Positions 12,124-18,300 of a DNA stretch of 27,364 bases are shown in pieces. The notes beneath the pieces were generated by a model. That model made no database searches, was not told the origin of the DNA, and saw nothing but the letters and a program-made list of their open reading frames with translations. The translations under genes were made by a program, and so were the position numbers. The stretch spans positions 1-27,364 of IMG/VR virus record IMGVR_UViG_2541047426_000009. One strand, written 5' to 3'. Positions within the stretch are counted from its first letter, which is position 1, and every line of letters starts with the position of its first letter. Origin of the DNA: a virus. Lineage: Duplodnaviria > Heunggongvirae > Uroviricota > Caudoviricetes.

Positions 12124-12199
12124 GGCCCTTTAGCTCAGCGGTGAGAGCGAGCGACTCATAATCGCCAGGTCGCTGGTTCAAATCCAGCAAGGGCCACCA
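12124..12199 (+). tRNA. tRNA with CAU anticodon (Ile2/ileX-like, or Met)
   Basis: Cloverleaf: acceptor GGCCCTT/AAGGGCC, D-stem GCTC/GAGC, anticodon loop CTCATAA, T-arm GCTGG-TTCAAAT-CCAGC, 3' CCA; resembles recalled E. coli ileX. Confidence 0.85.
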
Positions 12200-12279: not shown

Positions 12280-12356
12280 GCGTTGTTAGCTCAGCCGGAC
12301 AGAGCAATTGCCTTCTAAGCAATCGGTCACTGGTTCGAATCCAGTACAACGCACCA
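12280..12356 (+). tRNA. tRNA-Arg (UCU anticodon, reads AGA)
   Basis: Acceptor GCGTTGT/ACAACGC, D-stem GCTC/GAGC, anticodon stem ATTGC/GCAAT with loop CTTCTAA, T-arm ACTGG-TTCGAAT-CCAGT, 3' CCA. Confidence 0.85.
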
Positions 12357-12760
12357 CACCACACTTATCTGCCCTGACTCTCTTTTGCGGGCTTTTTATT
12401 ACAGGAAAGACACCGGACAGTGAAATGTTAAATGCCTCACAATTCAGGCAGTTGACTGTTGCCTGACATGCTGAGCGTTTGTTAAAAAAATCCTGCATGA
12501 TGAATCCCCCTGAGCGGCGGGGCATAATGACAGATGTTTGGTTGCGTATTGTATAGGCAAGTTGCGGATTCTGTCTGGTCATTGCAGAATTCACCGGGAG
12601 GCACCCGGCATCATGCTGTATACAGAGATTAGGCATATATCCAGGCTTCTCATCGCAGGAGCCTTTTTACATGCAAAAAAAAGCCCGAGTGGGTTCGGGC
12701 AACAGCATGAGATACTTGCATTGTCATTTTTATCGTGTGGATTTTAACCAGGGTTTATAA

Positions 12761-12879: not shown

Positions 12880-14295
12880 ATGACATTTAAACATTATGAT
12901 GTTGTCAGGGCGGCGTCGCCGTCAGACCTTGCGGAAAAGCTGACACACAAACTGAAAGAGGGCTGGCAGCCGTTTGGTAGTCCGGTGGCCATAACCCCTT
13001 ATACCCTGATGCAGGTGATTACAGCAGAAGGTGATGTGGTGGTCAGTGGTGCAACTGAGCCGGATTGGTACTACGTCATCGTACTGGCCGGGCAGTCCAA
13101 TGCCATGGCTTACGGTGAAGGGCTTCCGCTGCCGGATTCATACGATGCTCCGGATCCGCGCATTAAACAGCTGGCGCGCCGCAGTACAGTTACGCCGGGT
13201 GGGGCTGCCTGCAGATATAACGATATTATTCCGGCCGACCACTGCCTGCATGATGTGCAGGATATGAGTACGCTGAATCATCCGAAGGCAGACCTGAGCA
13301 AAGGGCAGTACGGCTGTGTCGGCCAGGGCTTACATATTGCCAAAAAACTGCTTCCGTATATCCCGAATAACGCGGGGATCCTGCTGGTACCATGCTGTCG
13401 TGGTGGTTCGGCATTACCCAGGGCGCGGAGGGGACATTCAGTGCGGACGCGGGGGCCAGCCAGGATTCGGCGCGCTGGGGTGTGGGTAAACCGTTATATC
13501 AGGATCTGATTTCCCGCACTAAAGCGGCATTACAGAAAAATCCCAAAAACGTTCTGCTGGCCGTCTGCTGGATGCAGGGAGAGTTTGACATGAGCGCCGC
13601 CACCCACGCACAGCAACCTGCGCTGTTTACAGCCATGCTGGCACAGTTTCGTGCTGACCTCTCCGTGTTTAACGCGCAGTGCCATGGTGGCAGTGCTGCA
13701 GATGTGCCGTGGATTTGTGGTGACACGACGTATTACTGGAAAAATACCTACGGCACCCAGTACAACACCATTTACGGGGCGTACAAAAACAGGGAGAGTG
13801 AGGGCGTTTATTTTGTGCCCTTCATGACAGACGGTAACGGCGTCAATACCGCCACTAACGCGCCGGCAGAAGATCCGGATATTCCGGCATCAGGATATTA
13901 CGGTGCGGCATCGAGAACGAATGGAAACCAGGTATCATCAAACCGCCCGACACATTTCAGTTCATGGGCGCGCAGGAGCATTATTCCGGATCGTATGGCA
14001 ACCGCTATTCTGAACGCAGCCGGGCGCACCTCAGCCTTCATCAGTGGTAAGGCACCGGAAATCAAACCCTCGCCCGGCGGCAACACGCCATCGGGTCCGT
14101 CTGCAGATACGTCCGTTCGCACAATCTCCCTGCTGCCGGCAGCCGGAGAGGCTGCTGCGCAGGGCTGGAGCATTAAGGATGGCGGAATTCAGTTGTCAGA
14201 TGGTGTATTTAAGATCACCAGGCAGAGCAATAAAACCTGGTCCCTGACGCATCCGGTGGATGACGCAATTACCCTGCTGACACAGGGCGGCAGAC
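12880..14295 (+). pseudogene. N-terminal part of a nanS-p-like sialate O-acetylesterase (DUF1737 + SGNH/SASA domain), frameshifted near 13400-13420 and truncated by an IS insertion
   Basis: MTFKHYDVVRAASPSD N-terminus and YYVIVLAGQSNAMAYGEG motif; reading frame switches between track ORFs 12823-13509 and 13392-14531; ORF runs into the IS inverted repeat at 14296. Confidence 0.7.
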
Positions 14296-14337
14296 TGAAC
14301 CGCCCCGGGTTTCCTGGAGAGTGTTTTATCTGTGAAC

Positions 14338-15228
14338 TCAGGCTGCCAGATCATCGTTTCCGATGGAAGCATAATAAGCTTTTTCTGCTTCTGCCGGAGG
14401 AGTATGGCCCAGCCTTCCCAGCAATCGTCGATTGTTATACCAGTCCACCCACGTTAGTGTGGCCAGTTCCACTTCTGCACGGTTTTTCCAGCTCTTACGG
14501 TGTATTACCTCCGCTTTGTAAAGACCATTGATGCTCTCAGCCATCGCGTTGTCATACGAGTCGCCTGTACTCCCTGTTGATGCCAGTAATCCGGCTTCTT
14601 TTAGTCGCTCCGTATAGGCCAGTGACACATACTGAGAGCCTTTATCGCTGTGATGGATGGTGCCAGACGGACGACGGGCCCACAACGCCTGCTCCAGCGC
14701 ATCCAGCACGAATGTCGTTTCCATAGACGATGAGACCCGCCACCCCACGATGTATCCGGCAAACACATCAATGATAAACGCCACATAGACGAAGCCCTGC
14801 CATGTGCTGACGTAAGTAAAATCAGCCACCCACAGCTGGTCAGGTCGTTCTGCCACGAACTGACGGTTTACGCGGTCGCCTGCGGCAACGGCTTTCCGGC
14901 TGATGGTCGTACGGACCTTTTTACCCCGGAGAACACCGGCAAGTCCCATAACCGCCATGAGACGTGCCACTGTACATCTGGCCACCCTGATTCCTTCCCG
15001 TAACAACTGACGCCAGACTTTACGCACACCGTACACCTGATGATTTTCATCGTATACGCGCTGTATCTCTCTCTTCAGCCAGTCGTCGTGCTGCGCACGG
15101 GCACTGCGTTTATCCGGATGATGTCGCTGTTGCTGACAATGGTAATACGTTGACGGGGCAATATGCAGTTCGCTGCATACCGGTCCGACCCCGTACTGCT
15201 CACGCAGCTTATCCAGCAGTGGCATCAT
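14338..15228 (-). CDS. IS3-family transposase OrfB (DDE catalytic domain)
   Basis: 296 aa; matches recalled IS629 OrfB. Confidence 0.9.
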
Positions 15229-15551
15229 TTTTTCCAGAGGCGGTCGAACTCCGCCTTCGCAAAATAAGCGGAAGCCTGGCGAAGGATATCGTTACTGCGG
15301 CGCAGTTCACGATTTTCACGTTCCAGCTCTTTCAGACGCTGACGTTCAGCGCTGGTGAGCCCACCATCACCGCCCCCGGTATCCCGCTCATGCTGGCGAA
15401 CCCAGACACGCAGAGTCTCCGGCGTACAGCCAATCTTTGGGGCAATGGAACAAATTGCCGCCCACTGTGAGTCATATTCATCCTGACTTTCCAGAACCAT
15501 ACGAATCGCCCGCTGACGGACTTCGGGGGAAAAACGAGTATTTTTAGTCAT
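15225..15551 (-). CDS. IS3-family transposase OrfA (HTH)
   Basis: 108 aa; overlaps orfB start, typical -1 frameshift arrangement. Confidence 0.9.
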
Positions 15552-15605
15552 CCTGTTTACCTCTTTCTCAGGGAGTTTAGTCTCCAGGATTTCCGGGGCG
15601 GTTCA

Positions 15606-16045
15606 GACTGACCTGTAAGTTCCGCCTGTCAGGCGCACTGACCAACAATCAGTTCGGGCTGGGGATTTATCTGTATACGGATGCTCCCGTTCCTGATGGT
15701 GTGGCGATGACGGGTACCGGTAATCCGTTCCTGATGTCGTACTTCACTCAGACCACTGACGGCAGAGTGAATCTGATGCATCACAGGAAAGCCGGAAACA
15801 CGAAGCTGGGGGAGTTCGGCGATTACGGTAACGACTGGCAGACGCTGGAGCTGGTGTTCACCGCCGGCAGTGCCACGGTTACTCCGAAACTGAATGGAGT
15901 GGCTGGCCCGGCATTCCAGGTTATAAAAGACAGTATGACACTGGGACTGAATGCGCTGACGCTGACGGATGTTACAAAAAATGCAGCGTATGGCGTTGAG
16001 ATAGAAAGTCTGGTGCTGGAGATAAATGCACCGGCATCATCATAA
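15606..16045 (+). pseudogene. C-terminal part of the nanS-p-like esterase, separated from the N-terminal part by the IS element
   Basis: After removing the IS and one TSD copy the frame is continuous with the upstream segment; track ORF 15701-16045 is its tail. Confidence 0.65.
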
Positions 16046-16194
16046 AAAGTGAGCCAGTCAAATGGAAGGTATCGTTAAACTCACCGGTAGTGTCAGTGGG
16101 TCGTCTGAGACGCCTGCATGAGTTATCAGAGCCATCAGTAGTTAACTGGTGGCTTTTTTATTGTTGTCAGCTTCCGGATAACGGGAGACGGGGT

Positions 16195-16410
16195 ATGTAC
16201 CAGATGGAAAAAATCACAACGGGTGTGTCATACACCACGTCAGCGGTGGGGACGGGATACTGGTTACTGCAGCTGCTGGACAAAGTCTCTCCGTCCCAGT
16301 GGGTGGCGATAGGCGTGCTGGGGAGTCTGCTGTTTGGGCTGCTGACATATCTGACGAACCTGTATTTCAAGATTAAAGAAGACCGGCGTAAGGCGGCGCG
16401 GGGAGAGTAA
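16195..16410 (+). CDS. class II holin / pinholin (phage 21 S-like)
   Basis: 71 aa, dual-start MYQM; matches recalled S21 ([16 protein letters not shown]...[22 protein letters not shown]); GGGAGA RBS. Confidence 0.8.
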
Positions 16411-16414
16411 AGTG

Positions 16415-16759
16415 ATGAAGAAAAAATACGAACTGGTTGTTAAAGGGATAAATAATTACCCGGATAAGATTACTGTTACTGTGGCACCGGAAATTGGTGG
16501 GTATCCGTCACTGTTGTTGCCAGATGTGGCGATTAGTCTTGACCGTACTGAAGGTGCCACGCTGGAGTTTTACGAAGCTGAGGCGAAAAAGCAGGCGAAG
16601 CAGTTTTTCATGGATGTTGCTGCCGGGTTATGTGAAGGGGATGGTCCGTTGCCGGAAAAGCGCCCCGTAATTTTAGAGGCGCAGGATGTGTTGATAACCT
16701 ACAGAGGAAAACTACCGGGAATAATTACGGGTTCTCTGAAGACTCCACCGCTGGCCTGA
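16415..16759 (+). CDS. uncharacterised 114-aa protein inserted between holin and endolysin (YdfR-like by position)
   Basis: Starts 5 nt after holin stop with GGGGAGAG RBS; soluble, no recognisable motif. Confidence 0.5.
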   Translation: MKKKYELVVKGINNYPDKITVTVAPEIGGYPSLLLPDVAISLDRTEGATLEFYEAEAKKQAKQFFMDVAAGLCEGDGPLPEKRPVILEAQDVLITYRGKLPGIITGSLKTPPLA

Positions 16760-16809
16760 AGACTTAACATATCCAGGGATTTGAAATCGATAAACCCTGA
16801 TAAATATCC

Positions 16810-17343: not shown

Positions 17344-17435
17344 GCAGAATATTTTGCTGAAAAATGCGGTTTGCTCACACTGGCGGATAACACGAAATCC
17401 TGCGAACTGGCAAAAACTAAGTGAATAAAAGTAAA

Positions 17436-17470
17436 ACCCCGTTTGTTGGCCGCAAACGGGGTTTTGTGTT
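17436..17470 (+). terminator. strong intrinsic terminator after the endolysin gene
   Basis: CCCCGTTTG-ttggccg-CAAACGGGG followed by TTTTGTGTTT; A-rich upstream so possibly bidirectional. Confidence 0.55.
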
Positions 17471-17832: not shown

Positions 17833-18300
17833 ATGAACCGTGTTCTGTGTGTGGTGATTATTGTCCTGCTGGTAGCCTGTGGTGTGCTTAGTCTGGGGCT
17901 GAATCATTACCGCGATAACGCCATTACCTACAAAGCGCAACGCGATAAAAAAGCCAGTGAGCTGAAGCTGGCGAACGTGACAATTACTGATATGCAGGTA
18001 CGCCAGCGTGATGTCGCTGCACTTGATGCCAGATACTCGAGGGAATTAGCCGATGCGAGAGCTGAAAATGAAACTCTGCGTGCTGATGTTGCCGCTGGTC
18101 GTAAGCGCCTGCGCATCAACGCCAACTGTCCAGGCTCCTTGCGTAAAGCCCCCATCACCTCCGGCGTGGATAATGCAACCGGTCCCCGACTGGCAGAAGC
18201 CGCTGAACGGGATTATTTCATCCTCAGAGAACGGCTGATGGCAATGCAGAAGCAACTGGAAGGAGCACAGGAATATATCCGTACCCAGTGTATACCGTGA
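17833..18300 (+). CDS. Rz i-spanin
   Basis: 155 aa; N-terminal TM then coiled-coil-like region; contains embedded +1-frame lipoprotein ORF. Confidence 0.8.
18068..18238 (+). CDS. Rz1 o-spanin lipoprotein embedded in Rz
   Basis: [15 protein letters not shown] lipobox signal then Pro-rich mature peptide, wholly inside Rz in the +1 frame. Confidence 0.7.

Follow-up and report, generated by a model that had tools for sequence, protein, structure and literature searches.

The small gene lodged between the holin and the endolysin of the prophage analysed here almost certainly belongs to the YdfR/DUF1327 family, as judged from its profile matches, and is probably an accessory gene rather than a component of lysis. 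On balance, we favour an explanation of the whole locus in which a YdfR protein is produced late as an accessory and in which the stretch of DNA under analysis (27,364 nt, from a lambdoid prophage of the E. coli O157 type; hereafter the window) carries an allele shortened by deletion. YdfR would be a small, soluble cytoplasmic protein of the ‘moron’ type that occupies gaps in the late operons of enterobacterial lambdoid phages. Its gene would have taken over the coupled start behind the pinholin, a site that belongs to the endolysin in relatives lacking ydfR. Since this start is coupled to the pinholin gene, the protein would be made late, alongside the lysis proteins, once Q-antiterminated transcription passes through, and would nevertheless stand outside the holin/endolysin clock. 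The allele of the window would have kept the domain of 72–74 aa and one additional module, and would have lost a C-terminal extension and a convergent partner gene.

The late region of the window carries, in this order, a DUF1133 Q-like gene, a DNA methylase, tRNAs, a NanS-p-like esterase, the lysis genes, a PerC-like gene, and the terminase (Table 1). The pinholin has the dual start MYQM, whose Met1 and Met4 give products of 71 and 68 aa, and the endolysin, as read from its sequence, combines a Gly/Ala-rich, SAR-like N-terminus with an E-8x-D-5x-T motif. Some 40 nt ahead of the holin start, at 16128–16156, there is a terminator-like hairpin with a T-run behind it, and Q-mediated antitermination would presumably be required for late transcripts to pass this site. 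Another terminator-like hairpin, strong and bidirectional, comes shortly after R (17433–17465). The segment 17421–17825 holds two small hydrophobic ORFs at the site where close relatives (the Stx1 phage YYZ-2008, E. coli O157:H7 E32511, and the Stx2 phage Min27) have an antirepressor (ant) gene. Upstream of the cassette, the NanS-p-like/DUF6645 esterase gene (13392–16045) is split by an IS3-family element; it is intact in E32511, with 1854 nt.

Table 1. Features of the window in and around the lysis cassette, with positions counted from the first nucleotide of the window.
Feature	Position	Strand	Evidence and remarks
sok antitoxin RNA	7349–7498		Rfam
Two tRNAs	12124–12196 and 12280–12353		
sRNA STnc100	12466–12674	+	Rfam
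Anti-GcvB sRNA AgvB	12676–12735	−	Rfam
IS3-family orfA/orfB	14338–15551	−	
ALIL frameshift pseudoknot	15154–15270		Rfam
Esterase C-terminal fragment	15701–16045		
Class II (phage-21-type) pinholin S	16195–16410	+	PF04971, 8.5e-33; phrog_9876/phrog_20 holin
Shine-Dalgarno GGGGAGAG of ydfR	16400–16407	+	Within the 3′ end of S; 7–9 nt upstream of the start
ydfR-family gene (DUF1327)	16415–16759	+	114 codons plus stop; PF07041, phrog_406
DUF1327 core, residues 1–74	16415–16636	+	Alignment of 24 sequences, AF2
Linker and ‘module 2’ (EKRPVILEAQDVLITYRGKLPGIITGSLKTPP), residues 75–112	16637–16750	+	Alignment; pLDDT 33–47
Deletion junction	16751–16759	+	DNA alignment of the window with L009, Evi, and mEp460
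R leader, 50 nt	16760–16809	+	Ends …CCTGATAAATATCC before the ATG; conserved for this endolysin allele
SAR-type endolysin R, 177 aa	16810–17343	+	PF00959 (Phage_lysozyme), 1.5e-24; phrog_7
Hydrophobic ORF, ~60 aa	Probable start 17499		phrog_1115
Hydrophobic ORF, 43 aa	17694–17825		phrog_4906
Rz	17833–18300		Two small ORFs between R and Rz
Rz1	18053–18238		

The gene runs from the ATG at 16415 to the stop codon at 16757–16759. All homologues in the alignment begin with MKKKYEL or MTQNYEL, and this ATG is therefore the start of a product of 114 aa. We also considered an in-frame GTG at 16412, which is an unlikely start since every homologue aligns from the ATG. The start codon is reached at the fifth nucleotide past the holin stop TAA (16408–16410), and the last codons of S hold the Shine-Dalgarno sequence that serves ydfR. 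A preliminary description of this DNA had proposed a soluble protein of 114 aa that starts 5 nt after the holin stop with a ribosome-binding site of its own, and every part of this is borne out. The protein has a pI of 5.5, and neither its sequence nor its Kyte-Doolittle profile contains a transmembrane segment or a signal peptide (the highest 19-residue window reaches 0.89). The junction between S and ydfR (GAGAGTAAnnnnATG) is conserved among the loci compared (the window, L002, L007, L009, L012, L014, and L016–L018), and the start of ydfR lies exactly 5 nt past the stop of the S21-type holin in all the E. coli-type loci examined. In cassettes lacking ydfR, comparison of the junctions indicates that the same Shine-Dalgarno site serves the endolysin. 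The ORF is a real gene: its profile score of 155 bits, its dN/dS, and its AF2 fold rule out a chance reading frame.

The match of the protein to PF07041 (DUF1327) spans residues 1–112 and scores 155.2 bits, for a cut-off of 25 (E = 5.4e-46), and the match to phrog_406 has an E-value of 3.8e-64. No NCBIfam model matches the protein, a profile search found no match among the PDB sequences (best E = 1.2), and the matches to the PADLOC defence models were at noise level (E of at least 0.02). Identical proteins (100%) are encoded by YYZ-2008 and E32511, and the PGAP/RefSeq name in phages and genomes is ‘YdfR family protein’. The family, its name, and its placement between S and R are thus already known from Pfam, RefSeq, and the K-12 genome, so that the term ‘uncharacterised’ used in the preliminary description fits the biochemical function of the gene but not its family, name, or gene order. 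The same description pointed to the YdfR proteins of Qin-like prophages, and it did so correctly, given the PF07041 match and the shared gene order. The order holin-ydfR-lysozyme is also found in YYZ-2008, E32511, Qin-type prophages, mEp460, Evi, and PhiR42_1. The S-ydfR-R block was matched in 4368 of the 5426 complete E. coli genomes, at a median of two places per genome, and at least 80% of it was covered in 2557 of them. The family is small: clustering at 90% identity yields 256 clusters, and 1.84 billion proteins include 91 representatives of it at 50% identity. A few of its members have unusual architectures. One (P0152) joins a coiled-coil segment to a following module 2 and has no N-terminal domain; another (P0126) has 287 aa, with a long additional C-terminal region. 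A holin-YdfR fusion (P0010) and a YdfR-Ant fusion (P0040) may be frameshifts or assembly artefacts.

The N-terminal part of the protein is a domain of its own. Structure prediction, suggested in the preliminary description as a check, gave a confident model of the core (pLDDT of 90.7 and pTM of 0.80 for residues 1–76, from an alignment that included the distant stand-alone homologues). In this AF2 model, the core of about 72 aa is built of three strands in antiparallel arrangement and, after them, a long helix (beta-beta-beta-alpha). Y53 and E54 never vary among 24 sequences with identities down to 24%, and Y5 is conserved in at least 90% of them; the window core contains the [FY]-Y-E motif where the helix begins. 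The N-terminal domain is under purifying selection: over the first 74 codons, the two main allele types differ with a dS of ~1.5 and a dN/dS of 0.27, and the comparison with the K-12 type gives a dN/dS of 0.24–0.28; dS is saturated in this domain. Module 2, whose model confidence is low, is found in some E. coli alleles only; neither K-12 YdfR nor the stand-alone forms have it. Its dS is 0.07–0.22 and its dN/dS 0.5–0.8. We considered the conservation of module 2 as a sign of constraint and rejected this reading, because the low synonymous divergence means that the similarity reflects recent shared ancestry.

The C-terminal end of the window protein bears the trace of a deletion. At the DNA level, the window tracks the long form of the gene through codon 112 and then jumps to the endolysin leader of ~50 nt, so that codons 113–114 (Leu-Ala) and the TGA derive from the far side of a deletion of ~470 bp. 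The alignment indicates that this deletion took both the C-terminal extension and a convergent gene of 86 aa (phrog_2572). The long alleles (176/183 aa, phrog_2091) are found in E. coli and Shigella prophages and in the phages 2H10 and PhiR12. They share with the window allele an N-terminal domain that is 61–97% identical, module 2, the holin junction, and the endolysin leader, but they differ from it by an extension of ~65 aa and by a 3′ end that overlaps the convergent 86-aa gene. The partner-less alleles of 114–116 aa are intact and abundant, with clusters of 464, 759, 1129, and 945 members.

The preliminary description had remarked that the gene interrupts the usual adjacency of S and R in phage-21-type cassettes, and comparison with relatives confirms it: the S stop overlaps the R start in phage 21, and in Min27 the ATG of R lies at +5, exactly at the position of the ydfR ATG in the window. 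No Shine-Dalgarno sequence was found in the R leader of the window (16760–16809), and R is therefore uncoupled from both S and ydfR there, whereas it is coupled in phage 21, Min27, and Qin. The spacer between ydfR and R shows no significant RNA fold (z = 0.8), and the last 17 nt of the leader (CCTGATAAATATCCATG, R start codon included) are invariant in four ydfR-containing loci. The junction between ydfR and R varies: the two genes overlap in the Qin-type cassettes, a gap of 50 nt separates them in the window, and in the long forms the gap measures 320 nt and contains an antisense gene.

Homologues also occur elsewhere in late operons. In a survey of genomic context, which sampled about 15 loci and was no census, DUF1327 genes were found behind Rz/Rz1 (L006) and behind a gpI-like gene (L004). 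Others separate the tail genes gpM and gpL (L021–L023 and gp24 of the Salmonella phage ES18), separate the tail chaperone from the tape measure (L024/L025), or precede unrelated types of holin (L019). The distant homologues above the Pfam cut-off are stand-alone proteins of 71–86 aa with their own Shine-Dalgarno sequences. Like the window protein, gp24 is a DUF1327 protein (30.7 bits, cut-off 25; 33% identity over the domain) encoded by a small insert of the late operon, but it lies between gpM and gpL, has a stand-alone form of 86 aa with its own Shine-Dalgarno sequence, and is paired with the convergent gp25 and annotated terminators. The ES18 record labels both gp24 and gp25 ‘possible moron; function unknown’.

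These data bear on the suggestion of the preliminary description that the gene could be a moron exploiting late expression. As in morons in the sense of Hendrix and Juhala, ydfR is an extra gene between two genes that are adjacent in relatives (phage 21 and Min27), and its composition is unlike that of the flanking genes (GC 0.45–0.48 and GC3 0.46–0.48 for ydfR, against 0.54 and 0.69 for S and 0.55 and 0.60 for R). Neither a promoter nor a terminator of its own, such as would permit expression from a repressed prophage, was found for ydfR in the window, and its start is coupled to S. No promoter-like site lies near the gene on the plus strand (the region has a total of 2, against 3.1 in shuffled sequence), the 5 terminator-like sites of the region are only a marginal excess over the 2.7 of shuffled sequence (sd 1.7). 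The gene is therefore no classical autonomous moron. A search of the region around ydfR against Rfam returned no family. The suggestion thus stands as regards an optional, AT-richer gene with relatives at other late-operon sites and with the label of its ES18 homologue, but not as regards an autonomous transcription unit.

The other proposal of the preliminary description, a role in lysis timing or endolysin control, is favoured by the position of the gene alone. YdfR could act as a cytoplasmic, antiholin-like factor that tunes the triggering of the pinholin or the activation of the SAR endolysin, by binding the short cytoplasmic C-terminal tail of the pinholin, with its stoichiometry set by the coupling to S. 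The +5 start in every E. coli-type locus examined, the conserved GAGAGTAAnnnnATG junction, and the co-transcription of ydfR with S, R, and Rz would all fit such a regulator. Yet DUF1327 occurs in only 101 of the 436 phage records with an S21-type holin and is missing from the other ~77%, which include Min27 and the experimentally studied phage 21; both phage 21 and the 933W-like phages lyse without ydfR. This is not the consistent co-occurrence with the holin expected of an antiholin. YdfR also lacks the topology of antiholins such as S21-71, lambda S107, T4 RI/RIII, and P1 LydB: it is a separate ORF without a transmembrane segment, signal peptide, or periplasmic part, and both known targets lie in or beyond the membrane. 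The start of the S21-71 antiholin is already present inside the holin gene of the window. Moreover, some relatives lie far from any holin, in the tail region or downstream of Rz/Rz1, the junction between ydfR and R is not conserved, and cells overproducing K-12 YdfR show no growth defect (PMC13232886). We thus regard a regulator of lysis as quite unlikely, even if the E. coli ydfR genes lie strictly between S and R, behind a coupling signal that is invariant, which could reflect a lysis-linked role in this subfamily. Alternatively, the insert might matter mainly in cis, by uncoupling the translation of the endolysin from that of the holin and changing the S:R ratio, with a dispensable protein. 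This would agree with the location of ydfR at the exact coupled site of R in Min27 and with the conserved R leader of the window, which lacks a Shine-Dalgarno sequence. We consider it very unlikely, given the purifying selection on the protein (dN/dS 0.24–0.28), its well-defined fold, the re-coupling of R to the ydfR stop in Qin-type cassettes, and the homologues outside lysis cassettes.

A further explanation starts from the neighbours of DUF1327 genes. In most of the loci sampled, a convergent gene of 70–186 aa lies 11–49 nt downstream of the DUF1327 gene or overlaps it, namely in L003–L006, L009–L013, Evi (L016), L019/L020, L023, L024/L025, and ES18 (L026). DUF1327 might act with or against this gene, for example as a late antagonist or regulator of a moron product that the prophage expresses, and the window copy would then be an orphan, possibly functionless, whose phrog_2572 partner was removed by the deletion. 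More broadly, the pair could form a mobile two-gene unit of the late-operon gaps of enterobacterial siphophages, in which an RNase E- and/or RNA-binding protein controls the antisense-overlapping transcript of the partner or the stability of late mRNAs, and from which the copies in lysis cassettes would derive. The partners belong to the families phrog_10490, phrog_25324, phrog_2572, and phrog_18578, and some of them follow DUF1327 across sites: phrog_25324 accompanies it behind a tape-measure-like gene, behind the S21 holin, and ahead of a holin_8 gene, and phrog_10490 behind a gpI-like gene, in the gap that separates the chaperone from the tape measure, and, at 36% identity, in the gpM-gpL gap of ES18. 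The phrog_2572 partner adjoins or overlaps DUF1327 in all 8 of the phage records that contain it. In one comparison of two pairs, the partners are 65% identical and their DUF1327 genes only 36%. Judged by eye, 5 of the 9 printed gaps between DUF1327 and its partner hold a short, GC-rich hairpin; the window does not have this hairpin. However, the partners come from at least four families unrelated in sequence, which fits an insertion hot spot for morons equally well. In addition, a partner is missing from the Qin-type, mEp460, and L021 loci, the partner-less alleles of 114–116 aa are abundant and intact, and neither gene matches a known model of defence or toxin-antitoxin systems. The recurrent pairing could reflect a two-gene unit that is mobile or no more than a hot spot for insertions, and we hold a function exerted through the partner, as well as the wider scheme of a mobile unit, to be unlikely. 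Were the scheme true, the unit and its function would be undescribed so far. The recurrent convergent partner is in any case a concrete handle on the function of YdfR, and it may outweigh our main finding.

We return to the accessory protein made late, which we prefer, and to what it might do. The closest studied relative is YdfR of the Qin prophage of K-12 (P76160). Like the window gene, it matches PF07041, lies between a class II holin (of the essQ type) and a lysozyme, and starts at +5. Residues 1–74 of a K-12-like protein are 46% identical to those of the window protein (BLASTP), with the same predicted beta-beta-beta-alpha fold. The two proteins differ beyond this domain. K-12 YdfR, of 103 aa, ends in an unrelated helical tail, and its stop overlaps the lysozyme start, whereas the window protein has module 2 in place of the helical tail and an end that stems from the deletion junction, and its gene is followed by an uncoupled leader of 50 nt.

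The interaction of YdfR with RNase E comes from a single study of an overproduced, tagged K-12 protein (PMC13232886, 2026). In that study, a two-hybrid screen returned residues 1–72 of K-12 YdfR three times (the window domain is 46% identical to this region), the full-length protein interacted with Rne 1–597, and Strep-YdfR co-eluted Rne 1–598. A DNase-resistant nucleic acid co-purified with the protein, and the authors could not exclude a contaminant as the carrier of the RNA; overproduction left the transcriptome almost unaltered (PMC13232886). Another lead, an envelope screen cited for ydfR (PMC3879167), does not have the gene in its main text and was given no weight. By analogy with the K-12 protein, the N-terminal domain of the window protein might bind the catalytic N-terminal half of RNase E, RNA, or both, which is a tentative proposal. 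If it does, it would modulate RNA turnover late in infection. A modulator of RNase E or RNA is the best mechanism available for YdfR, though we would still put its chances well below even.

YdfR-family genes are among the commonest genes of unknown function in E. coli prophages, they often have several copies per STEC genome, and they would be made just as Stx phages lyse their hosts. Insight into their function could shed light on the handling of RNA decay by temperate phages in late infection. Modulators of RNase E are known from several phages, namely Srd of T4, gp0.7 of T7, and Dip of phiKZ, and Srd contacts the catalytic N-terminal half of the enzyme. If the K-12 result transfers to the window protein, YdfR would be another phage protein contacting RNase E, and it would resemble Srd in the half of the enzyme that it targets. 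The likeness is one of description only: T4 Srd, T7 gp0.7, and phiKZ Dip are early proteins of lytic phages, whereas YdfR would be a late protein of temperate ones.
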